A stretch of 64,000 bases of DNA from Nemertoderma westbladi (taxonomy: Eukaryota; Animalia; Xenacoelomorpha): NCBI GenBank assembly GCA_032718475.1, contig JAUCBJ010009152.1, positions 1 through 64,000 of the forward strand, read 5' to 3'. The position numbers and the translations under genes were made by a program. This document shows, one piece after another, positions 12,989 through 41,000 of this stretch. Position 1 is the stretch's first letter. Each line of letters starts with the position of its first letter. Under the pieces are notes generated by a model, which made no database searches, was not told where the DNA came from, and worked only from the letters and a program-made list of their open reading frames with translations.

Positions 12989-13062
12989 TGGTCAATATTG
13001 GGTTTCGAACCCACGAACTTAGGTATCGTTAACGTGATTGATAACCACTAGACTACGTGACC
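12989..13062 (-). ncRNA. tRNA-like Pol III cassette in 3-kb unit 2
   Basis: GGTCACGTAGTCTAGTGGTTATCAATCACGTTAACGATACCTAAGTTCGTGGGTTCGAAACCCAATATTGACCA (74 nt), with T-arm TGGG-TTCGAAA-CCCA. Confidence 0.6.
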
Positions 13063-16002: not shown

Positions 16003-16076
16003 TGGTCAATATTGGGTTTCGAACCCACGAACTTAGGTATCGTTAACGTGATTGATAACCACTAGACTACGTGACC
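16003..16076 (-). ncRNA. tRNA-like Pol III cassette in 3-kb unit 3
   Basis: Same sequence as 12989-13062. Confidence 0.55.
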
Positions 16077-17318: not shown

Positions 17319-17418
17319 NNNNNNNNNNNNNNNNNNNNNNNNNNNNNNNNNNNNNNNNNNNNNNNNNNNNNNNNNNNNNNNNNNNNNNNNNNNNNNNNNN
17401 NNNNNNNNNNNNNNNNNN
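17319..17418. other. Assembly gap (100 N)
   Basis: A run of exactly 100 N. The flanks are non-contiguous positions of the 3-kb unit. Confidence 0.99.
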
Positions 17419-19131: not shown

Positions 19132-19771
19132 GTTCTAACTTCTGATTGATGGACTCCATATAGGAGTACTGGTTCTAACTGCTGTATGATGGACTCCATA
19201 TAGGAGTACTGGTTCTAACTGATGTATGATGGACTCCATATAGGAGTACTGGTTCTAACTGATGTATGATGGACTCCACATAGGAGTACTGGTTCTAACT
19301 TTTGTATGATGGACTCCATATAGGAGTACTGATTCTAACTGCTGTATGATGGACTCCATATAGGAGTACTGGTTCTAACTTCTGATTGATGGACTCCATA
19401 AAGGAGTACTAGTTCTAACTTCTGATTGATGGACTCCATATAGGAGTACTGGTTCTAACTGCTGTATGATGGACTCCATATAGGAGTACTGGTTCTAACT
19501 TCTCATTGATGGACTCCATATAGGAGTACTGGTTCTAACTTCCCATTGATGGACTCCATATAGGAGTACTGGTTCTAACTTCTGATTGATGGAATCCATA
19601 TACGAGTACTGGTTCTAACTGATGTATGATAGACTCCACATAGGAGTACTGGTTCTAACTTTTGTATGATGGACTCCATATAGGAGTACTGATTCTAACT
19701 GCTGTATGATGGACTCCATATAGGAGTACTGGTTCTAACTTCTGATTGATGGACTCCATAAAAGAGTACTA
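19132..19771. repeat. 40-bp satellite, 16 monomers (640 bp)
   Basis: Tandem 40-mers lying in phase between two insertions of the 3-kb element. Confidence 0.97.
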
Positions 19772-21219
19772 GGTGGGATAAATATTTCTCCATTTGACGC
19801 AACACCGCCGCGGCCGCTATGAGGGAGGTGAATACCGCGGCCGCTCCTAAAGCCGCAGGCCATCGCTAACTATATAGGTTAACTTGGGATTCTGGGGGAC
19901 TTTTCGATGAAGGAATTGACCAAATTTTTTTATTTTCTCACCAGGGGAGCGGCTCGGAATTCTAAGATATTAGCAAGTCTAACATTATTAAATCTAACCC
20001 TTCGACGGACACGGCGGACAAAAAACCGTCATTTTTTCAACAATTTTAAAATTTTTTTGAAAGGCGCTCTACAGTGGCTCGAAAAAACCCTAGGTTATTG
20101 CTTAGCCGACGCCGGGATACGATAGAAGGGATTAATTAGTGAATTCGTTTTTTTTTTCAAAAAAGATTACCACGCCTTTTTTCCGAAAATGTCCGTCAAA
20201 GTTGAAAAAACGGACAAAATGACTTTGCGGGATCCGCTATAACTCGGCTAATATTAATCGTACGGGGACGAAAGTAACGCGGTTGGAAAGAGGAAGAGTG
20301 GTACTACCTTCGTATCGAATGGGGGTAAGATATTTATTAAAATTTCGGGTGGAAAAAGGGGCTGTAAATTTGTACGTTTTTGTCCGTCTTTTTTGGAAAA
20401 CTTATTTCCGAAATGTTTAATTCGACAACGCGGGTAGGAATCCACTAATTATTTTATAAAACTCGTAGAAGACCATTGGGGCTACGTTCCTATCGAACGG
20501 GGGTACAAAAAATATGTCGGCAATAGGGGCCAAAAAGGGCCAGAATTTGTAAAGTAGTTTTTATCGAATAATTTTTTATTTTTAACTTTAGTTGGTTAAG
20601 GTACATTCTATACAGTCAATATCCATACGGGGAATTCAAATATGCTATCGGTTTTGCTCTAAGGATGATATTAAAAAAATGAGGGCCAAAATTATAATTT
20701 CGCGCTTCAAACTTGCTTCACGGGAAATCGTCTAGCTCGAAAACTACTTAACTTACGGGAGATTTGTTTACACAGACTTATAGTGCGTTAAATTATCTAT
20801 CTAACAGCGTTAATCACAGCGCCGGAGGTATTATAAAACTGGAGCGGCAGGCGATCGTGTGAAATATAATATTTATAAAAAGGGACGAAAAATTTTTTTT
20901 TTAACAAATCGCTATTCCATTATAATTAAGCGTATTGCGCCAAAAGTACCTGTAAAAAGTATCAAATTAACTCCGCTATCTTTTATCTTAACATATATAA
21001 TTAAAATTACGAATTTTAAGGGTCGAAAAATATCGCGTTATTTTGGCCCTTTTTTTAATTTTTTTGGGGCCAAAAATAACCCCTTCTCAAAAGATTAAGA
21101 AAAAAATTACGGCAAAGAATATACCAATTTTATTGAATTTGGACCACCAGAACCGAAATTAGAGCGATTTTAGTGAAAAAATAAAAATAATTTTTTTTGC
21201 AAAAAAATTAAGAATGGTC

Positions 21220-21293
21220 AGGTCAATATTGGATTTCGAACCCGCGAACTTAGGTTTCATTAACGTGATTGATAACCACTAGACTATGTGACC
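21220..21293 (-). ncRNA. tRNA-like Pol III cassette in first unit of second trimer
   Basis: A-box TAGTCTAGTGG and B-box GGTTCGAAATCC on the minus strand. Confidence 0.5.
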
Positions 21294-24233
21294 AAGAGAA
21301 TTTGAAATTTTCGAGTGACTATTTTTAAACATAAATAACTTCGGTTCTACAGGGCCGTTTAATCTGAAACTTTTTTCATTGGATAGAGGATAGATTGTAG
21401 TGTGTGAAATAGGATAAAACTTGGGAAAAGACTTATGTGCACTTAGTGCAAAATGCATTTAAATAGTGAACATTTTTTCGATATTTCAAACACTATTATT
21501 TCCAGTTCTATTCATCGTAGAATGTTATTTTTTGGATTAAAATGTAGTTTGGAATGATTTCTAACTATAATCGTAACATTTGTTTAACTTTTTATGTCTA
21601 TAAAGTGACTTAAAATGTCCATGAATATGGTCCATAATCGCAAATCCAGATTTATTAAATTGGATTTCTGACACTTTTAGCGACTGACACTTGATCATAC
21701 ACCATCGTAGATCGGTAGAGGATAAACATAAGTTTGTTAAATAAGAGCCACCATTACGATCTGCTAAAGTGCATTTGTACAAATAAGTGTGCAAAAGTGC
21801 AAATTTTTTAATAAGGTCAAATTATATAGTATTGGGTTATTTTCTTTGCAGATACTTTATTTTCATATTAATATATTGTTTGGACCTTACTGAGCGCATT
21901 AGGGATAAGTGTACAAATAACCGGCCCTTATGAGTCTTCGATTGGGTAAATTAATAAAACATAAGGTTGTATAGTATAATATTCTAAAAACCAGTGTGAT
22001 ATTAAATGCACTTTAAATAATAAATAGAAATCAAATAACAATTGGACCACACAATTAAAAACTCGCACAATTTTGTACTTATTATATCGCTTCAAATTAA
22101 TTCAACAGTGGATATTTGGGGGAAGGGGGAAGTTACAGTGTGCATTCGGGGGAAGTTTGGTGAACTGCATTTATGCAGTGAATCCAAACTTCCCCCTTTG
22201 AGATATCATATACTTAAGACATGCTAGGGTGACGGGGAAATATTTGTTACTGTCACAGTTTGCTTCCATTTATCCTATCCTTTATTATTACCCCAGTCAG
22301 ATAAGAGATAATAAATCAGTAAAAACTAAACTAAACTGTCTTTCATGCAAACAAATTTCTAACTAAAGACGGGTGAATGACCATGACCATGGAAATAATT
22401 TTAAATATAATTGTATATCAACTATTTGGGGAGGCTTCCAAGTTAAACCCGAAAACAATTATTTTGTTACATAGTAAATAACGTTGTATGTTCTTCTTCC
22501 TCTCATAATAAAATATAAATGAAATATCTCAGATCGCTATGCCCTGTAACATTTCACAACCAAAATATTTAAGTGTGAAAAGTGTAGGCCTACCACACTC
22601 CGCCCAAACAACCGCAAACGCATAGCCAACAAATTTAACAAAAGGTTACATACATGTTGGGTTCATGACGAGATGAGTGAAAATTGATCGCGTAATATAA
22701 AGTAAAAAATTAAGAGACGGGCTGGCTCTCCTCCACTTTCTTACCCAATGGATATGTTGTTGTAATAATCTAATTTTGGAGCGGCTTTCTCTCGGTGGGA
22801 TAAATATTTCTCCATTTGACGCAACACCGCCGCGGTCGCTATGAGGGAGGTGAATACCGCGGCCGCTCCTAAAGCCGCAGGCCATCGCTAACTATATAGG
22901 TTAACTTGGGATTCTGGGGGACTTTTCGATGAAGGAATTGACCAATTTTTTTTATTTTCGCACCAGGGGAGCGGCTCGGAATTCTAAGATATTAGCAACT
23001 CTAACATTAGCAAATCTATCCCCTCGACGGACACGGCGGACAAAAAACCGTCATTTTTTCGACTTTTTTAAAAAATTTTTGAAAGGCGCTCTACAGTGGC
23101 TCGAAAAAACCCTAGGTTATTGCTTAGCCGACGCCGGGATACGATAGAAGGGATTAATTAGTGAATTCGATTTTTTTTTCAAAAAAGATTACCACGCCTT
23201 TTTCCCGAAATTGTCCGTCAAAGTTGAAAAAACGGACAAAATGGCTTTGCGGGATCCACTCTAACTCGGCTAATATTAATCGTACGGGGACGAAAGTAAC
23301 GCGGCTGGAAAGGGGAAGAGTGGTACTACCTTTGTATCGAATGGGGGTAAGATATTTATTAATATTTCGGGTGTAAAAAGGGGCCGTAACTTTGTCCGTT
23401 TTTTCCATATTTTTTACATAATTAATATTTCCAAAATTTTTAATTCGACAACGCTAGTAGGAATCTGCCAATTCTTTTTCGGAAAGCGTAGAAGACCACA
23501 GGGGCTACATTCCTATCGAATGGGGGTACAAAAAATATGTAGGCAAAGGGGTCCAAAAAGGGCCAGAAAATAATAAAAAGTTTATAACTATAACAACTTT
23601 TTTATTTTAGACTCTAGAAGGTTAAAGTACATTTTATACGGTTAATATCGATACGGGGAATCCAAATATTCGATTGGTTTTGCCGCGCAAACGATATTAA
23701 AAAAATGAGGGCCCAAATTAAAATTTCACGCTTCAAACTCGCTTCGCGGGAACTCGTCTAGCTCGAAAAATACATAAGGTCTGGGAGACTTATTTAAACA
23801 GTCTTATAGAGCGTCAAATTATCTATCTTTCAACGGTAGTTACAACGCCATAGCTATTATATAACTGGAGCGGCAGACGATCGTGTGAAATATACTACTT
23901 ATAAAAAAGGGACGAAAAAATTTTTTTTTAATAAATCGCCATTACATTATAATTTAACTTTTTGCGACAAAAGTTCCTGTAAAATGTAGCAAATTAACTC
24001 CACTATCTTTTTTCTTAACATTAATAATTAAAATAACGAGTTTTAAGGGTCGAAAAATATCGTGTAATTTTGGCCCTTTTTTTTCATTTTTTTTGGGGCC
24101 AAAAGTACCCCCTCTCAAAAGATAGAAAAAAAAAATTACGGCAAAGAATATACCAATTTTATTGAATTTGGAGCACCAGAACCGAAGTTAGAGCGAATTT
24201 AGTCAAAAATTAAAAATATTTTTAAATTAAGAA

Positions 24234-24307
24234 TGGTCAATATTGGGTTTCGAACCCACGAACTTAGGTATCGTTAACGTGATTGATAACCACTAGACTA
24301 CGTGACC
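24234..24307 (-). ncRNA. tRNA-like Pol III cassette in second unit of second trimer
   Basis: Same sequence as 12989-13062. Confidence 0.55.
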
Positions 24308-27247
24308 AAGAGAATTCGAAATTTTCGAGTGATTATTTTTAAACATCAATAACTTCTGTTCTACAGGACCGTTTGATCTGAAACTTTTTTCATTGGATAG
24401 AGGATAGATTGTAGTGTGTGAAATAGGATACAACTTGGGAAAAGACGCATGTGCACTTAGTGCATAATGCACTTAAAAAGTACACATTTTTTCGATATTT
24501 TAAACACTGTTATTTCCAGTTCTATTCATCGTAGAATGTTATTTTTTGGATTAAAATGTAGTTTGGAATGATTTCTAACTATAATCGTAACATTTGTTTA
24601 ACTTTTTATGTCTATAAAGTGACTTAAAATGTCCATGAATATGGTCCATAATCGCAAATCCAGATTTATTAAATTGGATTTCTGACACTTTTAGCGACTG
24701 ACACTTGATCATACACCATCGTAGATCGGTAGAGGATAAACATAAGTTTGTTAAATAAGAGCCACCATTACGATCTGCTAAAGTGCATTTGTACAAATAA
24801 GTGTGCAAAAGTGCAAATTTTTTAATAAGGTCAAATTATATAGTATTGGGTTATTTTCTTTGCAGATACTTTATTTTCATATTAATATATTGTTTGGACC
24901 TTACTGAGCGCATTAGGGATAAGTGTACAAATAACCGGCCCTTATGAGTCTTCGATTGGGTAAATTAATAAAACATAAGGTTGTATAGTATAATATTCTA
25001 AAAACCAGTGTGATATTAAATGCACTTTAAATAATAAATAGAAATCAAATAACAATTGGACCACACAATTAAAAACTCGCACAATTTTGTACTTATTATA
25101 TCGCTTCAAATTAATTCAACAGTGGATATTTGGGGGAAGGGGGAAGTTACAGTGTGCATTCGGGGGAAGTTTGGTGAACTGCATTTATGCAGTGAATCCA
25201 AACTTCCCCCTTTGAGATATCATATACTTAAGACATGCTAGGGTGACGGGGAAATATTTGTTACTGTCACAGTTTGCTTCCATTTATCCTATCCTTTATT
25301 ATTACCCCAGTCAGATAAGAGATAATAAATCAGTAAAAACTAAACTAAACTGTCTTTCATGCAAACAAATTTCTAACTAAAGACGGGTGAATGACCATGA
25401 CCATGGAAATAATTTTAAATATAATTGTATATCAACTATTTGGGGAGGCTTCCAAGTTAAACCCGAAAACAATTATTTTGTTACATAGTAAATAACGTTG
25501 TATGTTCTTCTTCCTCTCATAATAAAATATAAATGAAATATCTCAGATCGCTATGCCCTGTAACATTTCACAACCAAAATATTTAAGTGTGAAAAGTGTA
25601 GGCCTACCACACTCCGCCCAAACAACCGCAAACGCATAGCCAACAAATTTAACAAAAGGTTACATACATGTTGGGTTCATGACGAGATGAGTGAAAATTG
25701 ATCGCGTAATATAAAGTAAAAAATTAAGAGACGGGCTGGCTCTCCTCCACTTTCTTACCCAATGGATATGTTGTTGTAATAATCTAATTTTGGAGCGGCT
25801 TTCTCTCGGTGGGATAAATATTTCTCCATTTGACGCAACACCGCCGCGGTCGCTATGAGGGAGGTGAATACCGCGGCCGCTCCTAAAGCCGCAGGCCATC
25901 GCTAACTATATAGGTTAACTTGGGATTCTGGGGGACTTTTCGATGAAGGAATTGACCAATTTTTTTTATTTTCGCACCAGGGGAGCGGCTCGGAATTCTA
26001 AGATATTAGCAACTCTAACATTAGCAAATCTATCCCCTCGACGGACACGGCGGACAAAAAACCGTCATTTTTTCGACTTTTTTAAAAAATTTTTGAAAGG
26101 CGCTCTACAGTGGCTCGAAAAAACCCTAGGTTATTGCTTAGCCGACGCCGGGATACGATAGAAGGGATTAATTAGTGAATTCGATTTTTTTTTCAAAAAA
26201 GATTACCACGCCTTTTTCCCGAAATTGTCCGTCAAAGTTGAAAAAACGGACAAAATGGCTTTGCGGGATCCACTCTAACTCGGCTAATATTAATCGTACG
26301 GGGACGAAAGTAACGCGGCTGGAAAGGGGAAGAGTGGTACTACCTTTGTATCGAATGGGGGTAAGATATTTATTAATATTTCGGGTGTAAAAAGGGGCCG
26401 TAACTTTGTCCGTTTTTTCCATATTTTTTACATAATTAATATTTCCAAAATTTTTAATTCGACAACGCTAGTAGGAATCTGCCAATTCTTTTTCGGAAAG
26501 CGTAGAAGACCACAGGGGCTACATTCCTATCGAATGGGGGTACAAAAAATATGTAGGCAAAGGGGTCCAAAAAGGGCCAGAAAATAATAAAAAGTTTATA
26601 ACTATAACAACTTTTTTATTTTAGACTCTAGAAGGTTAAAGTACATTTTATACGGTTAATATCGATACGGGGAATCCAAATATTCGATTGGTTTTGCCGC
26701 GCAAACGATATTAAAAAAATGAGGGCCCAAATTAAAATTTCACGCTTCAAACTCGCTTCGCGGGAACTCGTCTAGCTCGAAAAATACATAAGGTCTGGGA
26801 GACTTATTTAAACAGTCTTATAGAGCGTCAAATTATCTATCTTTCAACGGTAGTTACAACGCCATAGCTATTATATAACTGGAGCGGCAGACGATCGTGT
26901 GAAATATACTACTTATAAAAAAGGGACGAAAAAATTTTTTTTTAATAAATCGCCATTACATTATAATTTAACTTTTTGCGACAAAAGTTCCTGTAAAATG
27001 TAGCAAATTAACTCCACTATCTTTTTTCTTAACATTAATAATTAAAATAACGAGTTTTAAGGGTCGAAAAATATCGTGTAATTTTGGCCCTTTTTTTTCA
27101 TTTTTTTTGGGGCCAAAAGTACCCCCTCTCAAAAGATAGAAAAAAAAAATTACGGCAAAGAATATACCAATTTTATTGAATTTGGAGCACCAGAACCGAA
27201 GTTAGAGCGAATTTAGTCAAAAATTAAAAATATTTTTAAATTAAGAA

Positions 27248-27321
27248 TGGTCAATATTGGGTTTCGAACCCACGAACTTAGGTATCGTTAACGTGATTGA
27301 TAACCACTAGACTACGTGACC
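27248..27321 (-). ncRNA. tRNA-like Pol III cassette in third unit of second trimer
   Basis: Same sequence as 12989-13062. Confidence 0.55.
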
Positions 27322-28819
27322 AAGAGAATTCGAAATTTTCGAGTGATTATTTTTAAACATCAATAACTTCTGTTCTACAGGACCGTTTGATCTGAAACTT
27401 TTTTCATTGGATAGAGGATAGATTGTAGTGTGTGAAATAGGATACAACTTGGGAAAAGACGCATGTGCACTTAGTGCATAATGCACTTAAAAAGTACACA
27501 TTTTTTCGATATTTTAAACACTGTTATTTCCAGTTCTATTCATCGTAGAATGTTATTTTTTGGATTAAAATGTAGTTTGGAGTGATTTCTAACTATAATC
27601 GTAACATTTGTTTAACTTTTTATGTCTATAAAGTGACTTAAAATGTCCATGAATATGGTCCAAAATCGCAAATGTCGCGATTTATTAAATTGGATTTTTT
27701 ACACTTTTAGTGACTGACACTTGATCATACACCATCGTAGATCGGTAGAGGATAAACATAAGTTTGTTAAATAAGAACCACCATTACGATCTGCTAAAGT
27801 GCACTTGTACAAATAAATGTGCAAAAGTGCAAATTTTTTAATAAGGTCAAATTATATAGCATTGGGTTCTTTTCTTTGCAGATACTTTATTTTCATATTA
27901 ATATGTTGTTTGGCTCATACTGAGCGCATTAGGGATATGCGTACAAATAACCGGCCCTTATTAAGGCTTCGATTGGGTTAATAAATAAAACATAAGGTTG
28001 TAATATTCTAAAAAACCAGTGTGATATTAAATGCACTTTAAACAATAAATAGAGATCAATTAACAAATGGACCACACAATAAAAAACTCGCACAATTTTG
28101 TACTTATTATATCGCTTCAAATTAATTCAACAGTGGATATTTGGGGGAAGGGGGAAGTTACAGTGTGCATTCGGGGGAAGTTTGGTGAACTGCATTTATG
28201 CAGTGAATCCAAACTTCCCCCTTTGAGATATCATATACTTAAGACATGCTAGGGTGACGGGGAAATATTTGTTACTGTCACACTTTGCTTCCATTTATCC
28301 TATCCTTTATTATTACCCCAGTCAGATAAGAGATAATAATCAGTAAAAACCAAACTAAACTGTCTTTCATGCAAACAAATTTCTAACTAAAGACGGGTGA
28401 ATGACCATGACCATGGAAATAATTTTAAATATAATCGTATATCAACTATTTGGGGAGGCTTCCAAACCCAAAAACAATTATTTCGTTACATATAATATAG
28501 TAAATAACGTTGTATGTTCTTCTTCCTCTCATAATAAAATGTATATGAAATATCTCTGATCGCTGTGCCCTGAACATTTCACAACCAAAATGTTTCAGTG
28601 TGAAAAGTGTAGGCCTACCACACCCCGCCCAAACAACCGCAAACGCATAGCCAACAAATTTAACAAAAGGTTACATACATGTTGGGTTCATGACGAGATG
28701 AGTGAAAATTGAGCGCGTAATATAAAGTAAAAAATTAAGAGTCGGGCCTGGCTCTTCTCCACTTTCTTACCCAATGGAAATGTTGTTGTTTTAATCTAAT
28801 ATTGGGGCGGCTTTCTCTA

Positions 28820-29008
28820 GTTCTAACTGCTGTATGATGGACTCCATATAGGAGTACTGATTCTAACTACTGTATGATAGACTCCATATAGGAGTACTGG
28901 TTCTAACTGCTGTATGATGGACTCCATATAGGAGTACTGATTCTAACTGCTGTATGATAGACTCCATATAGGAGTACTGGCTCTAACTTCTGATTGATGG
29001 ACTCCATA
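28820..29008. repeat. 40-bp satellite remnant (~4.7 monomers) between the 3-kb trimer and the Polinton-like element
   Basis: Tandem 40-mers. The last 6 bp (TCCATA, 29003-29008) form the left TSD. Confidence 0.95.
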
Positions 29009-29347
29009 AGTAGTAGGGTCTTGGGCGGCTCTGTGACAGTTAGACCTCACTGACACCCATTGGGTGTCATATGACACCCAATTATCACCCCATGGGTGTC
29101 ATTGGGTGTCATTGGCGCCAGACTGTCTGGGTGACACCTCCCAATTAGGCTAATTAGACCCTAATTGACAGGTGTCATCAATTAATTAGTACAATTAAAC
29201 CCTAACAGGTATCATTTAGGGTTTAATTGATTATCCTAATTAATCAGACTGATTAGCGCCCTGACACACAATGGGTCATCAGTGATGTCTAACTGTCACA
29301 GAGCCGGCTCAAGAGGGTGTCATAAGTGACACCGCAGCTCTTTTATT
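29009..29347 (+). repeat. Left terminal inverted repeat (near-perfect core ~340 bp; degenerate similarity extends to ~29770)
   Basis: Reverse complement of 37689-38027. I saw one mismatch (CAGGTATCATT versus CAGGTGTCATT). Confidence 0.93.
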
Positions 29348-29781
29348 CATTAATACTTATTTATATTTAATTTTAATTAATTATTTGCATTTTATTTTAT
29401 ATTCGTATTTATTCATTTGTACTTTATTTTATATTAATTATTCATTTATACTTTATGGGTATACAGCTCCCTTACTGGTAACTAATTACTCTTATCTATA
29501 TCCAGACAGCTTTTTCGTTGACCTTTGACCTTTGACCCCTCAATTAGCTTTAACCAAGCAACAGCATATTAATGATAGTTGTATCCAAGCGCCCCTGCCC
29601 CCCACCCCGTGACAGCTCTGATTACTAATTACTCTTACATATATCCAACCGCCTGCAGTTCCATAGTCTGCCGCTAGAGGGCGTATTATCTGAAAATTAA
29701 CATCTTCTCTAACTTTGTTATTTTTCAATTTAACTATTTATATATCCAGGCAGCCCCTATCATAACAACCAGGGACCGGCA

Positions 29782-29832
29782 GGACACATGGAAACGATTT
29801 TATTACTATGAAATACATTGAAATATATTCTC
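29782..29832 (-). pseudogene. Short duplicated fragment of the TBP-like gene 3' region
   Basis: GGACACATGGAAACGATTTTATTACTATGAAATACA(T/C)TGAAATAT is also present at 30890-30934. It translates as RIYFNVFHSNKIVSMCP versus RIYIGRAYFSVFHSNKIVSMCP in the intact gene. Confidence 0.7.
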
Positions 29833-30320
29833 ACATTAACTCCCAAGGTTGCATACTATCACTATAGCTGGGAGAGTCAAAGCTAGAGTGTATGCTAGAG
29901 TTATCCAAGAGCTAGGAAAAAGAATAATGCTCTTCTAGGGTCCAAACTCACATCCATCCAATTAGAGAACTAAGCAAATGACCAGCTTGAAGGCCTTAGA
30001 CCCTTAATCTGAGGCATCGAGCAGCCAATGAGAGAGCAGATGTGAGTACAGTGGTAAAGCCCACCCATGGTGAGATAACGTCACACTAACTCTCAAGGAT
30101 AGTTATACTCACCGTTCAAATATCCCTCGCAAACCAGTTTCCCCCCAACATCTAAAGTAATCCACTTCAATGTAAAATATATAATGCAATATAACTCGAA
30201 TATTTCTGTTTTTATAATATAAATAATAATTGTAACATAAATTTATAATTTAACACAAATATAAGGTGAAAATTCACTTTAACATAGAGTAACTAAACTA
30301 AACATAAAATAGGATAAAAA

Positions 30321-30770
30321 CAGATGGTCATACTGTAGGCTCAATCCCTACTCGTGTCCGTTTTATGAAAAATATAAAAAGTAAACATAGAATAACTAGA
30401 GTACCTAAACTAAACACAAAATAGGAAAAACAGAAGGTCACGGGCTCAATCCCTACTCGTATCCCGTTTTATGGAAAATAAACAGGAGGTCATAGGTTCA
30501 ATCCCTACTCGCGACCATTATAAATCCAACACGAAATAAGTTAAACCAGGGTTCGAATCCTAATCATGAAAATATAAAAAGTAAACATAGAATAACTAGA
30601 GTAACTAAACTAGACATAAATTAGGAAAAACAGAAGGTCAGGGGTTCAATCCCTACTCGCGACCATTATAAAACCAACACAAAATAAGTTAAACCAGGGT
30701 TCGAGTCCTACTAATGCAATTATAAAAAGTAGGTAACACGGATGGTCACGGATTCAAACCCTACTCACGG
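30321..30770 (+). promoter_or_regulatory. Array of seven tRNA T-arm/B-box-like motifs interleaved with TATA boxes
   Basis: Motifs: GGCTCAATCCC (~30338, ~30443), GGTTCAATCCC (~30495, ~30643), GGGTTCGAATCC (~30549), GGGTTCGAGTCC (~30697) and GGATTCAAACCC (~30750). Two end in ...CTACTCGCGACCA. TATAAAAAG occurs at 30373, 30573 and 30721. Confidence 0.55.
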
Positions 30771-30834
30771 AAAAATAAAAACCAACACAAAATAAATAAT
30801 ATAGTAAACTTTCATGTATACCATAGTAAATAAT

Positions 30835-31350
30835 CTAATTTAATAATAAAGTTTGTAAAATAGATAATGATTCGGGGAATTCACCGGCTGGACACATGGA
30901 AACGATTTTATTACTATGAAATACACTGAAATATGCACGTCCTATATATATTCTAATCGCGCAAAATAATTCGGGGGTATAGCTAATAAATATTGCTTTA
31001 TTATTAATTGTATGATGTCCACATTTTTTCATTAATAATTTAAAATTAACACTTGGAAAAATAATAGTTTGTGTTTCGGTATTAAGTTTCAAATTTTGTA
31101 ATTGCATACCAATAGTTTGTTTTAAATAAAGCAATTCACTAGCTAAATTATTGCAAAGGCCTACAATTGTTACTGCGCCGCTGGGAAATAGCATTATAGT
31201 TGAATCGTCACCTTTGTAGATAAACATGTTTGGTTTTAAGCAACTTTGACCTGTAGTTTGCTGTGAAATTTTCTCTAGTTCAAATTTGGCAATGTTTTTT
31301 CCGGTAAACTGTTTATTGGTTATTTCTATTTTGTAGCTCAATTTCTTATT
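30835..31350 (-). CDS. Divergent TATA-box-binding protein (TBP/TFIID core)-like protein; probably a spliced terminal exon
   Basis: Two-repeat TBP pattern: STIMLFPSGAVTIVG matches TBP TTALIFSSGKMVCTG; ISYTPELFCAIRIY...FSVFHSNKIV matches SSYEPELFPGLIYR...LLIFVSGKVV; KIEITNKQFTGKNIAKFELEKIS matches [22 protein letters not shown]. The ~170-aa length fits the TBP core. The ORF-track start is TTG, and an in-frame acceptor TTTTTCTAG lies 9 nt upstream. Confidence 0.75.
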   Translation of the reverse strand, partial: NKKLSYKIEITNKQFTGKNIAKFELEKISQQTTGQSCLKPNMFIYKGDDSTIMLFPSGAVTIVGLCNNLASELLYLKQTIGMQLQNLKLNTETQTIIFPSVNFKLLMKKCGHHTINNKAIFISYTPELFCAIRIYIGRAYFSVFHSNKIVSMCPAGEFPESLSILQTLLLN

Positions 31351-31364
31351 CTAGAAAAATTAAA

Positions 31365-34300
31365 TTAAATCCTAGTAGGGGGGATTACTACTCGTTTCGC
31401 CGGTCTAACAAGCTTAGTGCTATAGTGCCCGTATGGTTTGCTGCTATATTTACTACTCCAATATGATTTCGTATCCCAGAGCGTTAGTGCCTTCTTATAG
31501 ACATGACCAGTAAAAATTTGATGCTTACTAGAAGTGAAGGTAGAGTTATAGCGGAAGAGCATTGCCTCGTTTACAAAACAGTCTGCATAATCCTCGTGTG
31601 TTAGTTGCTTAGCGACAACCGATCTAGATACACCTTTGGCGGTTTTCTTGATTGGGGCATCATAGGATTGAAAACTGTAGACCTTTGGTTTAAGGAAAAC
31701 CCACTGTTTATACTGCAAACCGCAGCTCTCATCTTTTATGAAGCCGAGAGCCGCTTTGTGTTTAATGGTATAGAGTGGATGTGTTGTACTGTAGTTGGAA
31801 GTATCTAGGAAACCACCCTCAAACATTGCCCGTAGAAAGGTTAGCTGTGGTGTATTAGTTACGCTTAGCATTAGAGAATCCGTGTCACCGGCTAGACAGC
31901 GAATCTGGCAACCCAGTTTTTGTTCTAGAGGCTTCAGTTTGTTGTAAAATAGGTCGTACATCTGTAGCTTAGATAGATCTAGTATAGTGCAACCGATGAA
32001 CACGCCCTGATTTAGGCAAACAGCCTCTTTAGTGAAAGTATGACCACTCAAGTTGGGGGTAAATACAACAAACGATTCGTGATTGGGCTTGGCTAAGAGC
32101 AAATCGCATTGTTCGTCGCTATTGCATAACCTGAAAGAAACGCGGTCTCTAACCTTTTGGAGGCATTTCCCATACAAGGCATTGTTCATCAACTTATAAA
32201 ATAGGACCTCGAATGGGTTATTTGCCGACTGTCTTTTATTGGTATTAAAACTAATGTAGTCCTTGAAAATATATTTTTGTGAGAAAGAGTAGACCCTATG
32301 TACTTGTGTAAGTTTAAGACCGAGCTTCAAATAGAGTTGAAGTAGCTTAATATGGATACCGTATTCAACCTTATTAAACTGATGTAGTAGTAGCTTAGTA
32401 CAGGTATCGTTGTATGGTCTACAGGTGGCCGTATCGGTGAGATTGTAATGCTCCCAAAGATCTTCCATGTATTCGCTAAGAAAGGATTTAGGGACTGACA
32501 TCTTCTCCGCTCCTAGAGGCAGATCGGCGGTCAAATCATGAATTTCTTTCGGGTAATGTAGATCAACTATGCAATAATAACCAGTATCCCCACTCGCGTC
32601 TACTGTAGCTAGGTCTATGGGGGTAGTTACGAGTTTAATATTAGCGTAGGGAAGTTTCTGGCTCAGGGCGCAGCCGTAAAGGTTATTCGCATCGATGGGA
32701 ATTAGATATTTCTCGGGGAGACTGGAGTCATAGTCGGGTTTATCGGGAATATTTGCGTCTACGGAATGTGTATTCAAGAATACTAGACCACCCCTAATAT
32801 TTGTTTCAAAGTCCGAGTAGATGGAAGCGTCTGATAGTAATTGAATTTCTGATTGCGTGAATTTCAGCGCCGCGTCGTAAGTTAATCCAGGGGCAGTGAA
32901 GTACATTACGGGCTCGAGTCCATAATTAGTAAGACAGAGGGATCGGAACTGCTCGAAAGTATCAGCCAATAGGGTAACATCTAGAACCAAATAGCCAATC
33001 ATATAGTCAAAGATTGTTGCGCAGTTTAATTCATCCCAAGTAGTAAGCGCGCGCTGATAGTTTTCTGCGCTACATTGTTCCAATTTGAGATCATTATAGA
33101 AGCTTTCTAATGGGGGGAGTGTAGTTTCGTGTAGGTTTGAAATATTTTGAATGTAGGAATATGGGAATACACCCTTGTTTTTTATTGTGTTATCGCTAAT
33201 GTTGGGATAGAGTTGGGTCATTTGAGCTAGTGTATGGGGTATGGCTGTTGCTAGGTTACTGTTATTTTTAGTGAGATAACTACTAAGATTATCTAGGCTG
33301 GCAGTCATAAACTGATAGGAATCTAGAAAATTAATGGAGATACTTTCTTTAGCGTTGGCTGTTGGTGTACTCGGATCGATTGGGAAGCTAACTTTAAGGT
33401 GAATATAAGTTTCGGTGTTTTTTGGTATTACGGTCATTTTCCAGTGTGTTCTAGAACTATCGGTCATTCCTTCTTTTAGTAGTAAATGCATATCGAATTT
33501 CCTCAGGTTATGAAATATAATATAAAAATTATTCCGTTTTAGGGAAAGTTTCCTGTTGCAGCTGACGCAAGCAGCCCCCCGATACTCCCCGCTATAATGA
33601 TCGTGATCGCGGACTTTGGTGCTGAGATTGTCATTGAGGTTTAAATTATGAGAATCGGGGGTTAAATTACAGTTGCAGACGTAGCATTGTGTAGCGTTAT
33701 TAAAGTCAGTTTGTTGGCTAGTAGTGAGTTGCATGGGGGCGTGCGTGTTTGTACTAGAAATGGACCAATCGTATAACTCCCTACAATGACTTTCCATAGC
33801 GGTTAGAAAGTCGCGCATTACGTGGTTACTGCCATCGTCGCGGAAAATTTGAACATCTGTTTTAGGAGGGTTAATTAATTTCTGATTTGGTACTGTATAA
33901 AAGGCTGCCGCGCTAGCTATATGTTTCTGTGGGAGTTTAATATTGTTTGTAGGTTCTAGAATAGTTTCAATGTCGGCGTATATACAGAAAGGTGGGGATA
34001 GAGTCTTATCGTACCTATCAAATTTAACCAAGAGATTTTCGGGCATATACTCGAGTTGGCGTTTACCCGTATAGCACCGCTCTCGATGTTCTTCCAATGA
34101 TTTGTCAGTGTAAAAGGCTCTGAGACAGCGTTCGCAGTGCGTCTTGTTGCCTTTAGAAGTAGCTTTAGTATTTATTAATCTATCTATGTTAGTAATAGCT
34201 ACGTAGTGGGCGGGGTTTTTGCTTGTGGCTTCGATAAATAATAAGTTTAGTACAGTTTTACCGGAACAGTGCGCGCTATCTGGTTGACTTAGGATGGAGA

Positions 34301-35420
34301 GTTCTTCCGTATTACTCCAATAAAGAAGGTTTATGCAGTATATAGGGTTGGCTTTCAGAAACTGGGGAATACCAGTTACTCTGTCCACCGGAAAACTTAA
34401 ATTCGAAAAATCAAACATGTTTAGGAAAGGAGTATAGGTTGAAATTCTTTTGATATTATTTTGTTTTCTATCAATTTTCTTATAATTTGCGGCGGCCAAA
34501 ACTGCGTATTTAAAGCATTCCCCCAGCGGGCAGTCTACGCTTACGGTACATTTTTTATTTAATAATAATTTAGAATTATTGAACCCTTGACCCTTTAAAT
34601 AGGGGTTGCGTTGGGACCGCACAATCTCAATAGTTATTCGCTCGATGGCTATTATGCGCCAACCCGAGCCGAGACAGAGAAACACGCTTAACAGTTGATC
34701 GATACGATTGACGGCGCCAGAAAACCAGTTATTAAAGTCGCTATTATTCAGAATTTGATTATTGTTACCGCTAGATTTAAAACAGAATGATTCAATTTGA
34801 AATCCCTCGCTGGTTTCACGCTCCATTACGATGTTGATTGTAAGCCAGACTCTTAAAAAAGTTCCCATGGCACTACGTAAATGGCTACTAACGTGTTCGT
34901 GAATGTGTGGAAAATTTTCATTTAATGTTAATTCTGCGTCGAGTCTTGTTTCTGTGAGGTCGTTGTTATAGGTAAACAGTCGTCCGTGTGCGCTTCCGTT
35001 AGAGGGTGGTTGAAATGGATTGTTTGGGGAAATAGAATCTCGCGAAGTTGAAGGTTCGTTATTGGAGCCGCCGCCGCCGACTTGTTCTGGAGTAGAGTTG
35101 ATGGGGGATGAGTGTGAGGTAGTCGGAGTTTTGCGTTTCCGCGAAAAAAGTCGAGTATAGCATTCATGCTCAGTAAAGGAAGATAGGGTGAGCGAATCCC
35201 CGCAGCGGCAATCGGCTGGCTCGTTTACGTAACTAAATCCTGTTCCCCCCTGAGGACACGAAACAAGATGGCCAACCAGCGTCTTCTTTTCCGAAGACCA
35301 AGTCGGACAGCAGTCGCATCTATATTGCGCGAAATGAGTTTTAATATGACGAGATAAATTATCACTCCGCGTCTCTTTGTTGCAGATGGGGCAGCTAACT
35401 TTATTGCTAGACATAGGCAT
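31365..35420 (-). CDS. polB: Protein-primed family B DNA polymerase (Polinton/adintovirus type), 1351 aa
   Basis: Exonuclease motifs IYADIET, FHNLRKFD and DVTLLAD; KGVFPY; IRGG; motif A IDANNLYG; motif B KLMNNALYGK; motif C GDTDS; KDE; KPKVY; AKGV. It also has an N-terminal C2H2 finger (CPIC...HIKTH), a GSGW motif, GECFKYAV...HY (OTU-like Cys/His) and an EndoVII/HNH-like insert (CYVC...DHDHYSGEYRGAACVSCN). Confidence 0.95.
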   Translation of the reverse strand: MPMSSNKVSCPICNKETRSDNLSRHIKTHFAQYRCDCCPTWSSEKKTLVGHLVSCPQGGTGFSYVNEPADCRCGDSLTLSSFTEHECYTRLFSRKRKTPTTSHSSPINSTPEQVGGGGSNNEPSTSRDSISPNNPFQPPSNGSAHGRLFTYNNDLTETRLDAELTLNENFPHIHEHVSSHLRSAMGTFLRVWLTINIVMERETSEGFQIESFCFKSSGNNNQILNNSDFNNWFSGAVNRIDQLLSVFLCLGSGWRIIAIERITIEIVRSQRNPYLKGQGFNNSKLLLNKKCTVSVDCPLGECFKYAVLAAANYKKIDRKQNNIKRISTYTPFLNMFDFSNLSFPVDRVTGIPQFLKANPIYCINLLYWSNTEELSILSQPDSAHCSGKTVLNLLFIEATSKNPAHYVAITNIDRLINTKATSKGNKTHCERCLRAFYTDKSLEEHRERCYTGKRQLEYMPENLLVKFDRYDKTLSPPFCIYADIETILEPTNNIKLPQKHIASAAAFYTVPNQKLINPPKTDVQIFRDDGSNHVMRDFLTAMESHCRELYDWSISSTNTHAPMQLTTSQQTDFNNATQCYVCNCNLTPDSHNLNLNDNLSTKVRDHDHYSGEYRGAACVSCNRKLSLKRNNFYIIFHNLRKFDMHLLLKEGMTDSSRTHWKMTVIPKNTETYIHLKVSFPIDPSTPTANAKESISINFLDSYQFMTASLDNLSSYLTKNNSNLATAIPHTLAQMTQLYPNISDNTIKNKGVFPYSYIQNISNLHETTLPPLESFYNDLKLEQCSAENYQRALTTWDELNCATIFDYMIGYLVLDVTLLADTFEQFRSLCLTNYGLEPVMYFTAPGLTYDAALKFTQSEIQLLSDASIYSDFETNIRGGLVFLNTHSVDANIPDKPDYDSSLPEKYLIPIDANNLYGCALSQKLPYANIKLVTTPIDLATVDASGDTGYYCIVDLHYPKEIHDLTADLPLGAEKMSVPKSFLSEYMEDLWEHYNLTDTATCRPYNDTCTKLLLHQFNKVEYGIHIKLLQLYLKLGLKLTQVHRVYSFSQKYIFKDYISFNTNKRQSANNPFEVLFYKLMNNALYGKCLQKVRDRVSFRLCNSDEQCDLLLAKPNHESFVVFTPNLSGHTFTKEAVCLNQGVFIGCTILDLSKLQMYDLFYNKLKPLEQKLGCQIRCLAGDTDSLMLSVTNTPQLTFLRAMFEGGFLDTSNYSTTHPLYTIKHKAALGFIKDESCGLQYKQWVFLKPKVYSFQSYDAPIKKTAKGVSRSVVAKQLTHEDYADCFVNEAMLFRYNSTFTSSKHQIFTGHVYKKALTLWDTKSYWSSKYSSKPYGHYSTKLVRPAKRVVIPPTRI

Positions 35421-35940
35421 CTTGAATCTAGAAAAATAAGTTGATTATTCATAAAAAAATAAAAAATACTGTATACTTGCTAAAAATAAGGTAAAACAGT
35501 AGGTATTAATCGGTTACTAGGCAACAATACTGTGTTTGTACAGTTAGGCCTATTGCTGTATTGTAGCATTCAGGCAGTGAAACATAAAGCAGACAGTCAG
35601 CAGTGTCTAGTGTAGTAGTGTTAGTGTACCAGCGGTCAGATAGTGGCGATAACCAAGACACAATAGCGATGGCAGTTATTATTCGTGGAAAGAGGGTCTA
35701 TAAACAGCAGTCAGTCAGTGCAGTAGTGCTAGTGAAATAGTCTGCCAGAAGTCAGACGTACCGGTAGCGTTAACCAATAGAAATCAACGATAGGCTTAGC
35801 TAATCGCTGTGTGAGAACTCAGTTAGTCAGTAGGATATATAATGAAAACTGCAGTATTCAGTGTTGTTCAGTAGGGTCTATATCGCTACTATGATGGCAT
35901 TAGGCTAACTCGAATGATCCGGTAGCGCTAGTTGGGTAGA

Positions 35941-36752
35941 CAAGCAGATAGACAGATGTAGGCCTATTGATCGAATGCTTCGATCACGGTTTAGGCTATC
36001 GGTACCACCACAGTCTGACAGTAATTAATAATGAGCCTACTGCAATACTGTTGTACCGGTAGACATTAAATGTAAATTGTTTGCTAGCGGCATCGATAGT
36101 ACAGTCAGATGGTGGAAGGGAAGGCAGATTTTACTTACGGTGTTAGTAAATATTCACGGAAAGAAGAAGTTTGGAAGTTTGTTGGCGATGAGGAAGTTGG
36201 TTGACGTGGACGACGAGAGAGTTTATTAACCGATAGAACGGAATGGTATCGGAAATTAGAAATAATGGAATATTACGCGACGAATACGCGGAAAGTTTGT
36301 TGTCGACAATGAGCGTTAACGCGGCGAAATTACACTAGAAAAATAAGTTGATTATTTGTAAAAAGATAAAAAATACAGTAAGCAGATAGGCGGATGTAAG
36401 CCTATTGATCGAATGCTTCGATCACGGTTTAGGCTATCGGTACCACCGCAGTCTGACAGTAATTAATAATGAGCTTACTGCAATACTGTTGTACCGGTAG
36501 ACATTAAATGTAAATTGTTTGCTAGCGGCATCGATAGTACCGTCAGATGGTGTAAGGCAGATTTTACTTACGGTGTTAGTAAATATTCACGGAAAGAAGA
36601 AGTTTGGAAGTTTGTTGGCGATGAGGAAGTTGGTTGACGTGGACGACGAGAGAGTTTATTTACCGATAGAAGGGAATGGTATCGGAAGAATATTACGCGA
36701 CGGATACACGGAAAGTTTGTTGTCGACGATGAATGATAACGCGGCGAAATGA
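35941..36752. repeat. Direct duplication of ~380-400 bp (about 35941-36334 and 36380-36752) containing putative non-coding leader exons
   Basis: Both copies contain GCCTATTGATCGAATGCTTCGATCACGG...GATTTTACTTACGGTGTTAG...GCGGCGAAAT. Minus-strand donors ACC|GTAAGT lie at 36571 and 36138; acceptors TTATTTTTCTAG lie at 36335 and 35428. Confidence 0.75.
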
Positions 36753-36939
36753 CAATAATACAACTCTACAAGTGGGTTGTTGATCGATGATAACAAATAA
36801 ATATTCTTAAATAAATAATATTAAATTCGAAAACAAAATAATGGTAAATGATGTTAATCGTAACTTGCAATTGAAATAATGACCTAATATATTAGTGGGG
36901 ATGTATTAAATAGCAATTCGGTTAGTAGGGGAGGCCCTT

Positions 36940-37030
36940 GTCTCTTAAATGAGCCAATCAGAGCGCAGCAGCAGAAATGACGCCCGCTGATTGGCTGTTC
37001 GCGCAAAAGCGGTTACCAGGGCAACTTCTC
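36940..37030 (-). promoter_or_regulatory. Candidate Pol II promoter of the element (paired CCAAT boxes, E2F-like and RFX X-box-like sites)
   Basis: AGCCAATCAG at 36952, CTGATTGGCT at 36987, TTCGCGCAAAA at 36998 and GTTACCAGGGCAAC at 37012. The cluster lies upstream of the leader exons and polB on the minus strand. Confidence 0.45.
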
Positions 37031-37688
37031 GTGTTGATTCTATATTAGAAAACTCTTGTAAGCATCTTGACTAATTATGTTGAGTTGGTTGTATAACAGA
37101 AGCAGGTCTGGTGCAAAGGAAAGGGATTAGTAGAGAGGAATGCGTGATTAGTGGCGCTTCATTGTTATGATAGGGGCTGCCTGGATATAGGAAAGGGACA
37201 AAGCGACGCCGGCTATAGTGGGAACAATGGAGGGCCGCTTGAGCATTAGCCTTGGGCGATATACGGATTTGTTGTAGTCAAGGCCGCCTGGCGCCATTGA
37301 ATAATGAAGACAAAGGGGCTGCTAACAGACGGGACCGCTCATTTATATTTGCCTTGGGGGTATACGTGTAGATTCACTGCCTGTTGTATCTAGTTAATGA
37401 ATAATGAGGACAGAGGAGGGGCCCCCCGCCGATGAACGCAGTTGATAGTTGCCAGTAGGGAGCCGTATACCATAGCCATTATAAAGTTAAAAATAGATAT
37501 TATGTCATAGTGATCTCGTTGGTAATATAAAAACTAATTAATCTAAAAATAGAAATCAATGTATAAAGTTTATACAATTAATTAATTTAAAATAAAGTAC
37601 AAATGAATAATTAATTTAAAATTAAATACAAATAAAATAAAATACAAATAATTAATTAAAATTAAATATAAATAAATAGGTATTAATA

Positions 37689-38027
37689 AATAAAAGAGCT
37701 GCGGTGTCACTTATGACACCCTCTTGAGCCGGCTCTGTGACAGTTAGACATCACTGATGACCCATTGTGTGTCAGGGCGCTAATCAGTCTGATTAATTAG
37801 GATAATCAATTAAACCCTAAATGACACCTGTTAGGGTTTAATTGTACTAATTAATTGATGACACCTGTCAATTAGGGTCTAATTAGCCTAATTGGGAGGT
37901 GTCACCCAGACAGTCTGGCGCCAATGACACCCAATGACACCCATGGGGTGATAATTGGGTGTCATATGACACCCAATGGGTGTCAGTGAGGTCTAACTGT
38001 CACAGAGCCGCCCAAGACCCTACTACT
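37689..38027 (-). repeat. Right terminal inverted repeat (core; degenerate similarity extends inward to ~37160)
   Basis: Reverse complement of 29009-29347. Confidence 0.93.
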
Positions 38028-41000
38028 TCCATATAGGAGTACTGGTTCTAACTGATGTATGATGGACTCCATATAGGAGTACTGGTTCTAACTTCTGTAT
38101 GATGGACTCCATATAGGAGTACTGGTTCTAACTTCTGATTGATGGACTCCATATAGGAGTACTGGTTCTAACTGCTGTATGATGGACTCCATATAGGAGT
38201 ACTGGTTCTAACTTCTGTATTGATGGAATCCATATAGGAGTACTGGTTCTAACTTCTGATTGATGGACTCCATAAAGGAGTACTGGTTCTAACTTCTGAT
38301 TGATGGACACAATATAGGAGTACTGGTCCTATATAGGTGTACTGATTCTAACTGCTGTATGGTGGACTCCATATAGAAGTACTGGATCTGACTGCTGTAT
38401 GATGGACTCCATATAGGAGTACTGGTTCTATCTGCTGTATGATGGACTCCATATAGGAAGGAGTACTGGTTCTAACTGCTGTATGATGGACTCCATATAG
38501 GAGTACTGGTTCTAACTTATGACTGATGGACTGACTCCATATAGGAGTACTGGTTCTAACTTCTGATTGATGGACTCCATATAGGAGTACTGGTTCTAAC
38601 TGATGTATGATGGACTCCATATAGGAGTACTGGTTCTAACTGCTGTATGATGGAATCCATATAGGAATACTGGTTCCTGGTTCTATCTGCTGATTGATGC
38701 TCCATATAGGAGTACTGGTTCTAACTGCTGTATGATGGACTCCATATAGGAGTACTGGTTCTAACAGCTGTATGATGGACTCCATATAGGAGTACTGGTT
38801 CTAACTGCTGTATGATGGACTCCATATAGGAGTACTGGTTCTAACTGCTGTATGATGGACTCCATATTGGAGTACTGGTTCTAACTTCTGATTCTGATTG
38901 ATGGACTCCATATAGGAGTACTGGTTCTAACTGCTGTATGATGGACTCCATATAGGAGTACTGGTTCTAACTGCTGTATGATGGACTCCATATAGGAGTA
39001 CTGGTTCTAACTGCTGATTGATGGACTCCATATAGGAGTACTGGTTCTAACTGCTGATTGATGGACTCCATAAAGGAGTACTGGTTCTAACTGCTGATTG
39101 AGGAGTACTGGTTCTAATTACTGTATGATGGACTCCATAAAGGAGTACTGGTTCTAACTTCTGATTGATAGACTCCATATAGGAGTACTGGTTCTCACTG
39201 CTGATTGATGAACTCCATATAGGAGTACTGATTCTAACTGCTGTATGATGGACTCCATATAGGAGTACTGGTTCTAACTGCTGTATGATGGACTCCATAT
39301 AGGAGTACTGGTTCTAACTGCTGCATGATGGACTCCATATAGAAGTACTGGTTCTAACTGCTGTATGATGGACTCCATATAGGAGTACTGATTCTAACTG
39401 CTGTATGATGGACTCCATATATGAGTTCTAACTGCTGTATGATGGACTCCATATAGGAGTACTGGTTCTAACTTTTGTATGATGGACTCCATGTAGGAGT
39501 ACTGATTCTAACTGCTGTATGATGGACTCCATATAGGAGTACTGGTTCTAACTTCTGATTGATGGACTCCATATAGGAGTACTGGTTCTAACTTCTGATT
39601 GATGGACTCCATATAGGAGTACTGGTTCTAACTGCTGTATGATGGACTCCATATAGGAGTACTGGTTCTAACTGCTGTATGATGGACTCCATATAGGAGT
39701 ACTGGTTCTAACTGCTGTATGATGGAATCCATATAGGAGTACTGGTTCCTGGTTCTATCTTCTGATTGATGCTCCATATAGGAGTACTGGTTCTAACTGC
39801 TGTATGATGGACTCCATATAGGAGTACTGGTTCTAACTGCTGTATGATGGACTCCATATTGGAGTACTGGTTCTAACTTCTGATTCTAATTGATGGACTC
39901 CATATAGGAGTACTGGTTCTAACTGCTGTATGATGGACTCCATATAGGAGTACTGGTTCTAACTGCTGTATGATGGACTCCATATAGGAGTGGACTCCAT
40001 ATAGGAGTACTGGTTCTAACTTCTGATTGATGGACTCCATAAAGGAGTACTGGTTCTAACTGCTGATTGAGGAGTACTGGTTCTAACTACTGTATGATAG
40101 ACTCCATAAAGGAGTACTGGTTCTAACTTCTGATTGATGGAGTACTGGTTCTAACTGCTGATTGATGAACTCCATATAGGAGTACTGATTCTAACTGCTG
40201 TATGATGGACTCCATATAGGAGTACTGGTTCTAACTGCTGTATGATGGACTCCATATAGGAGTACTGATTCTAACTGCTGTTTGATGGACTCCATATAGG
40301 AGTACTGGTTCTAACTGCTGTATGATGGACTCCATATAGGAGTACTGGTTCTAACTGCTGTATGATGGACTCCATATAGGAGTACTGGTTCTAACTTCTG
40401 ATTGATGGACTCCATAAAGGAGTACTAGTTCTAACTTCTGATTGATGGACTCCATATAGGAGTACTGGTTCTAACTGCTGTATGATGGACTCCATATAGG
40501 AGTACTGGTTCTAACTTCTGATTGATGGAATCCATATAGGAGTACTGGTTCTAACTTATGATTGATGGATTCCATAAAGGAGTACTGGTTCTAACTTCTG
40601 ATTGATGGACTCCATATAGGAGTACTGGTCCTATATAGGTGTACTGATTCTAACTGCTGTATGATGGTCTCCATATAGAAGTACTGGTTCTGACTGCTGT
40701 ATGATGGACTCCATATTGGAGTACTGGTTCTATCTGCTGTATGATGGACTCCATATAGGAAGGAGTACTGGTTCTAACTGCTGTATGATGGACTCCATAT
40801 AGGAGTACTGGTTCTAACTTATGATTGATGGACTGACTCCATATAGGAGTACTGGTTCTAACTTCTGATTGATAGACTCCATATAGGAGTACTGGTTCTA
40901 ACTGCTGTATGATGGACTCCATATAGGAGTACTGGTTCTAACTGCTGTATGATGGAATCCATATAGGAATACTGGTTCCTGGTTCTATCTGCTGATTGAT

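Follow-up and report, generated by a model that had tools for sequence, protein, structure and literature searches.

A two-gene, 9-kb element of Nemertoderma westbladi as a probable derivative of TBP-bearing Polintons

How a mobile element that encodes a replication enzyme and a putative transcription factor, and has neither integrase nor capsid genes, comes to be copied and precisely inserted is the question raised by a stretch of DNA from the xenacoelomorph Nemertoderma westbladi (assembly GCA_032718475.1, contig JAUCBJ010009152.1, positions 1 to 64,000; these 64,000 nt are hereafter the window). The element in question (29009..38027, 9,019 bp) combines Polinton/Maverick ends with a protein-primed DNA polymerase (pPolB) and a TBP-fold frame. 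It is probably a 9-kb, high-abundance derivative of a clade of TBP-bearing Polintons, which copies itself and is inserted by the integrase of a partner that recognizes the same ends. Because the integrase test fails, the element is not a Polinton by definition (the definition, in the accessible part of PMC5499653, includes an integrase); it works like a Polinton's replication half. Its principal features, including the terminal inverted repeats (TIRs) and the target-site duplication (TSD), are as follows.

29003..29008: left TSD, TCCATA, within a 40-bp satellite unit
29009..29456, plus strand: left TIR, beginning AGTAGT, with a G+C-richer core of ~340 bp followed by an AT-rich part
30835..31350, minus strand: TBP-fold open reading frame (ORF), open over 171 codons and without an ATG before 31227 (codon 42)
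31365..35420, minus strand: pPolB, 1351 aa, with a PF03175 match, an EndoVII insert and a C2H2 finger
37563..38027, minus strand: right TIR, finishing ACTACT, with the mirror-image branched palindrome at 37722-38017
38028..38033: right TSD, TCCATA

The ends are those of a Polinton/Maverick. The left end at 29009 begins AGTAGTAG (AGTAGT) and the right end at 38027 finishes CTACTACT (ACTACT), in keeping with the (AGT)2//(ACT)2 or (AG)3//(CT)3 termini and TIRs of 100-1500 bp of that group. The TIRs, ~450 bp long, differ at one position over their first 339 bp and are 93.8% identical across 465 aligned columns. The TSD, within the usual 5-8 bp and of the typical 6 bp, reads TCCATA on both flanks, its copies lying in register with the 40-bp satellite unit that the element interrupts; such ends and a 6-bp TSD mark the commonest Maverick type in the accessible part of PMC8097293. 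At 9,019 bp, the element falls short of the 13-25 kb of Polintons/Mavericks. Both coding frames lie on the minus strand and jointly occupy 51% of the element, in which only two ATG-initiated ORFs of at least 100 aa occur, 31365-35420(-) of 1351 aa and 30835-31227(-) of 130 aa. The initial annotation, made from the sequence alone, had described a complete element with an intact TSD and near-identical TIR cores whose sole long ORFs are pPolB and a TBP-fold frame, and this description stands.

The polymerase, likewise reported there as uninterrupted, is intact: it matches PF03175 (E 2e-18), as a Polinton/Maverick pPolB does, and its exonuclease, polymerase and EndoVII motifs, common to 11 relatives, are complete, the nearest proteins being 36-40% identical. 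Cys302 and His405 are conserved at the position given for the vOTU protease, which releases a fused terminal protein (placement from the accessible part of PMC11161782). In a FastTree phylogeny of 99 rows (the window, 61 of 83 polymerase-bearing related loci and 37 database proteins, loci whose match lacks positions 620-1260 having been omitted), the window pPolB is placed within a clade with support 1.0, as sister to P0001. Scans of viral contigs returned no match with pPolB alone and three loci, all outside the window's clade, with the polymerase alignment, and the polymerase profile had no match below E 0.09 among PDB sequences. A viral contig bearing both a 1854-codon pPolB frame and a Sputnik-type major capsid protein was also encountered (L003:4439-10000 and 13596-15323).

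The rest of a Polinton is missing. An rve integrase is present neither as an ORF nor, by a 19-member profile, as a relic; for the packaging ATPase, the protease and the major and minor capsid proteins, no further ORF of at least 100 codons occurs in the element and all 32 profiles were negative, no protease profile being recognized among them. These profiles represent 32 ORF families derived from the related loci, including the integrase family; six-frame searches of 29009-30834 and 35421-38027 with them gave no match below E 0.1, against 1.9e-15 for the TBP control. Decayed integrase or capsid remnants, which the initial annotation had named as incompatible with its interpretation, were therefore not found among these families at that threshold. 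A tblastn match in the left non-coding part (E 3e-4) to an antisense ORF of L083 was taken as chance. Eight short ORFs of the non-coding parts have no convincing Pfam match (best E 0.04), Rfam gave no match across 1-39000, and the window contains no tRNA.

The TBP fold of the second gene is confirmed by profile, model and fold search. A TBP-family alignment recovered 111 proteins and solved TBPs (E down to 5e-23), and a model built with a 74-row alignment reached a pLDDT of 88.9 and has the two-repeat saddle, with TBPs as the top Foldseek matches (E 1e-9, TM 0.65-0.78); the single-sequence model reached 31.5. Viral TBP-like proteins ranked top in a viral library search, with which the atlas was concordant, though of low recognition value. 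By itself the ORF reaches 20.4 bits, short of the 22.9-bit Pfam cut-off for TBP (PF00352); single-sequence searches with it gave no match in viral contigs, the protein database or PDB sequences, nor did the TBP alignment in viral contigs. P0132, the lone representative match, was rejected as a 17-fold repeat protein. The window copy retains N12, F55, F129, F144 and E127; it has a shorter first stirrup and departs at the second Asn position and at one Glu. Among such positions are what we take to be the DNA-kinking Phe residues, the central Asn pair and the Glu pair of the TFIIB stirrup. No ATG occurs within the first 41 codons of the frame, and a start at codon 42 would delete the first strand and helix of the fold, unlike in the relatives, whose TBPs begin with Met shortly ahead of the conserved Asn. 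Unless the frame is a relic, the full fold, for which no ATG is available, would have to be reached by splicing or from a non-AUG start; two weak donors inside pPolB are in frame with TBP.

This gene is not peculiar to the element. When the 83 related loci were screened for TBP homologues via an iterated profile over their ORFs, seven loci proved to carry them, all matching Pfam TBP, and every one of these loci belongs to the same pPolB clade as the window (support 1.0). A rve+chromodomain integrase accompanies TBP in four of them (L027, L030, L034 and L069), three of which have weak ATPase matches and one of which (L034) has a weak capsid match; the contigs of L020 and L042 stop ~200 nt beyond the TBP gene. 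Judged from this phylogeny, the TBP goes back to a clade of full-length Polintons that carry it and is not new cargo, so that the earlier view of it as cargo peculiar to the element's family is not supported; here it may be decaying. The four integrase-bearing loci, full-length TBP-bearing Polintons from metagenomes, share the pPolB clade and the viral TBP family with the element; in them the integrase and other genes are retained, for the most part preceded by ATAAAC boxes, whereas in the element these genes are absent and the TBP has diverged much further. The label TBP is also present in a PMC8502044 figure legend, in the accessible part of that paper. A gene with a Phospholip_A2_4 domain occurs in five of the seven TBP loci, adjoining the TBP gene in four:

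L020:7267-7701; L030:13724-14125; L034:3982-4395; L042:5213-5656; L069:4569-4988: Phospholip_A2_4-domain gene

The boxes themselves have a distribution that follows the clade. ATAAAC lies at most 80 nt before 23 of 45 non-polymerase starts in the seven TBP loci (background 4%), before 11 of 33 in 34 other clade loci and before 3 of 89 in 30 loci outside it, counts in which ten outside loci were assigned without a tree, 12 loci were omitted and several loci are close kin, and for which the motif was picked after being noticed. A TAAGA box is not enriched in the clade (1 of 45 starts). In its fuller form, (C/T)ATAAAC(A), the box precedes many non-polymerase genes, at a distance of no more than 80 nt, in L020, L027, L030, L034, L042, L069 and further clade loci such as L029, L054, L055 and L064, and is enriched in the TBP-bearing clade and not outside it. 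It is a candidate site for the clade's viral TBP, and its position before non-polymerase genes is as expected of a late-gene switch. The TBP mimics of beta- and gammaherpesviruses (KSHV ORF24; accessible parts of PMC7498053 and PMC12529657), in which a viral TBP-like factor is paired with late promoters, provide a working model for this combination; in contrast to the ORF24 type, the element's protein is a bare saddle of ~170 aa whose DNA binding is putative, and the element has no late genes.

Whether the element is a family or a single truncated copy was addressed with contig sets from four runs (X1-X4) of three studies, one of which is perhaps the source of the assembly itself. The element is covered in 30 of 30 bins, the non-coding interior included, in X1-X3, which come from two studies, and in 28 of 30 in X4. 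Near-identical X3 contigs that lie in pPolB and at the 3' end of TBP reach depths of 1,500-2,000, as against 46-56 for diverged contigs, which suggests tens of copies if the latter are single copies, depth not being copy number. Two X4 contigs depart from the exact right terminus into non-satellite flanks. Among the best-supported rows, 12 of 19 listed pPolB variants are synonymous (4.9 expected, p=7e-4) and none of 12 listed indels falls within genes, coding sequence being 51% of the element. As read from these variants, pPolB is under purifying selection and the element is probably a family and not a one-off, in agreement with the initial annotation, which had named a one-off deletion derivative as incompatible with its interpretation; the high depth in three studies, the other flanks at the terminus and the mostly synonymous variants all speak for this. 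Other interiors on the same ends are hinted at by loose ends located on, or close to, the inner borders of the TIRs (29357, 37313, 37481 and 37572). Also present are older copies with gaps in pPolB and, in X1 and X4, a derivative without 3.2 kb of pPolB (joint 31357-34587) that keeps the pPolB 5' part and the start of the TBP frame. The terminal 20-mer has no match in viral contigs.

The near-identity of the TIRs, noted from the outset, is borne out; the long branched palindrome of each TIR had gone unmentioned.

29019..29314: branched palindrome of the left TIR, an outer stem with arms at 29071-29112, 29130-29179 and 29181-29244

The first 340 nt of the TIR fold into a 296-nt stem with three inner arms (dG -111.6 kcal/mol, z -18.6, reached by 0 of 100 shuffles). 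TGACAC/GTGTCA hexamers, ten in these 340 nt vs one in the interior, partly build the palindrome, and four TIR variants are listed, which were examined for flip/flop inversion of the hairpin. The fold may aid excision or priming, or may merely reflect repeated binding sites. A palindrome filter was passed by 2 of 41 clade loci vs 3 of 26 other loci, in metagenomic contigs that mostly lack ends. One clade member has a ~200-nt palindrome near its contig end (L029:6491-6724), downstream of pPolB and two small genes. In the accessible part of a report on Halocafeteria virophages as well as PLVs (Polinton-like viruses; bioRxiv 10.64898/2026.07.28.741278), palindromes lie inside TIRs and adjoin the TSD, as in the element, although those presented there are 52 nt long and mostly on elements without pPolB, whereas this one is 296 nt, branched and situated on a pPolB-bearing element.

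In the 4.4 kb of non-coding DNA there are, besides internal duplications, an inner inverted repeat of 28 bp, a partial copy of the TBP gene 52 bp long and predicted expression signals.

29650..29723: short piece common to many unrelated contexts, with loose ends on both sides in all four runs, mostly with low agreement on the left; likely a host dispersed-repeat fragment
29741..29768: 28-bp perfect inner inverted repeat, paired with 37162-37189
29775..29826, plus strand: 52-bp copy (96%) of TBP-gene part 30883-30934, pointing to internal rearrangement
30280..30795: direct repeats of 50-200 bp forming a non-coding patchwork, downstream of the TBP gene
31351..31359, minus strand: predicted acceptor-like T5CTAG, directly before the TBP frame
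35428..35436, minus strand: predicted acceptor-like T5CTAG, ending 8 nt before the pPolB ATG
35942..36757: near-tandem ~400-bp duplication (91%); both copies have a donor-like GTAAGT on the minus strand (36571 and 36138)
36940..37000, minus strand: predicted inverted CCAAT-box pair followed by an AT-rich box, a candidate host-type promoter for the minus-strand unit

An acceptor-like site at 36335 lies within the duplicated leader region, which, with its GTAAGT donors, is a possible spliced leader. One acceptor-like 9-mer has three copies on the coding strand, ahead of pPolB, ahead of TBP and within the leader, and none on the other strand, with 0.11 expected and three reached in none of 2000 shuffles.

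Under the favoured reading, a derivative that replicates itself and borrows an integrase, a minus-strand transcript from the right-hand promoter would be spliced to the acceptors before pPolB and TBP. The polymerase would supply its own terminal-protein primer, freed by the vOTU domain, and, beginning at the AGT ends, copy the linear DNA once excised, with the fold-back TIRs perhaps helping to release or resolve these ends; a retroviral-type integrase made by the partner would then insert the copy and create the 6-bp TSD. Because the element has no late genes of the ATAAAC type, its TBP, putatively the clade's late-gene factor, either acts in trans, on the partner's promoters, or is decaying. 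Of the integrase-dependent satellite proposed in the initial annotation, the intact pPolB and the lack of integrase, ATPase and capsid genes are thus retained, and the kept TBP cargo is not.

A number of observations tell against this reading. The integrase is inferred to come in trans from a partner that is itself hypothetical, and TIR-bounded units with only pPolB and TBP were found at 0 of the 83 related loci, most of which are short fragments without ends. The contig comparisons represent the best 40 of 471, best 12 of 64 and best 24 of 850 rows; no contig spans the whole element, its abundance being one of depth and not of counted copies, and some variants could stem from a helper's pPolB. 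The putative terminal-protein and vOTU assignments are based on position and the conserved Cys/His. All three acceptor-like sites fail a stricter pyrimidine-tract filter, two of them belong to a single 46-bp duplicate, and the motif had been noticed before it was chosen. The TBP lacks a start for the full fold, and none of six donor-like sites offers a leader ATG in frame with it. It also differs at E125, P130, G147 and G153, near-invariant in its family (G in 55 of 55 rows at 147 and 153, E in 53 of 55 at 125, all changed here), and is an outlier with an end branch of 2.14. ATAAAC is not enriched in the element, which has 11 sites where ~9 are expected, and no gene start has one within 80 nt; being only 20-26% identical to its relatives, the window TBP may use another box.

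Since a likely late-gene factor has been kept without late genes, a split element is also conceivable. In this more tentative extension of the favoured reading, which we hold to be distinctly less likely than the reading that contains it, the element would be the early segment of a bipartite Polinton, supplying the polymerase and the viral TBP, while a sister element with the same hairpin ends would have the integrase, ATPase and capsid genes behind boxes read only by this TBP. If so, the halves would need each other for copying, late transcription, insertion and packaging, and would constitute a segmented integrating animal DNA virus. Searches of the open literature, exclusive of Repbase reports, most subscription papers and supplements, brought up no Polinton that is bipartite or reduced to pPolB and TBP.

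The alternative that survives best, though rather unlikely, is that a full TBP-bearing Polinton gave rise by deletion to an ordinary, passive non-autonomous copy, which the parent's enzymes amplify, with pPolB and TBP as passengers and the TBP already a relic. TBP is indeed standard equipment of the clade's full elements, the window copy has no start for its full fold and has lost near-invariant residues, the internal duplications show rearrangement, and the persistence of the 3.2-kb-deleted form in X1 and X4 means that pPolB is not needed for a copy to persist. A recent deletion is nevertheless argued against by the absence of any relic of the lost genes, by the profiles used, in the 4.4 kb of non-coding DNA; moreover, the pPolB variants are mostly synonymous, and the TBP frame still reads through 171 codons without a stop, for which composition gives a chance of ~5e-7, and its product is modelled as a complete saddle. 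Considerably less plausible is a self-sufficient element whose EndoVII/HNH insert cuts the TIR hairpins or the target, host repair joining the copy without an integrase. T4 endonuclease VII cuts branched DNA, the motifs of the insert are intact, and the TIRs are able to form branched structures; however, the same insert is present in 16 of 17 related polymerases scanned, and it did not replace the integrase, as integrase-bearing relatives (L030 and L034) carry it too, while the precise 6-bp TSD and AGT/ACT ends are the signature of integrase-bearing Mavericks. An assembly artefact, in which a longer element was collapsed or mis-joined in a satellite-rich scaffold, is very improbable: the element does lie in a satellite array with an N gap ~11.6 kb to its left and is spanned by no contig, but its TIRs match, its TSD is in register, X1-X3, from two studies, cover every bin, and no listed loose end or joint marks a dominant branch at the gene borders.

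Against this background, the favoured integrase-dependent derivative can be set beside known systems. With Polintons/Mavericks (adintoviruses) that have an OTU-type pPolB, the element shares AGT/ACT ends, TIR length, a 6-bp TSD and a multidomain pPolB with Cys/His at the vOTU position and an inserted nuclease (accessible parts of PMC8097293, PMC8502044, PMC11161782 and bioRxiv 10.1101/2023.08.22.554363); those elements are 13-25 kb, however, whereas this one is 9.0 kb, without integrase, ATPase, protease or capsid genes and with its two genes on one strand. Nine capsid-less Polintons lack the major capsid protein, protease and ATPase, a concerted loss of the virion module as seen here, yet the accessible part of that report gives no integrase loss (PMC4028283). 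Linear pPolB plasmids are likewise capsid-less, TIR-bounded pPolB replicons derived from Polintons, and the dependence of a 9-kb killer plasmid on a 13-kb helper offers a parallel; in contrast to them, the element is integrated with a TSD and shows putative host-type promoter and splice-like signals. Integrase-less MELD viruses are known, and non-autonomous Polintons reportedly figure in the original descriptions.

Polintons have been studied mainly in silico. Satellites or split genomes among Polintons, and with them a path leading from virus to plasmid-like or segmented replicons, would be demonstrated by a selected, abundant form in which only the replication gene and a late-gene factor are kept. 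Such a form would, in addition, furnish a two-gene system in which to ask how Polinton DNA is primed and what long TIR hairpins do, and, at the level of the clade, the pairing of a viral TBP with ATAAAC would allow a direct test of early-to-late gene control.

The surroundings of the element are repetitive. The 40-bp satellite, with higher-order variants, occupies window positions 2762-8524, 19132-19770, 28821-29015 and 38028-64000, thus extending for more than 25 kb on the right side. Set in it, at 8525-19130 and 19770-28818, are non-coding tandem units of ~3.0 kb, 91-95% alike, which lie within a 9.4-kb duplication (7888-17318 / 19129-28563, 98.9%) ending at the N gap. G+C-rich palindromes occur near one end; as a guess, the units possibly form a non-autonomous Helitron-like array.

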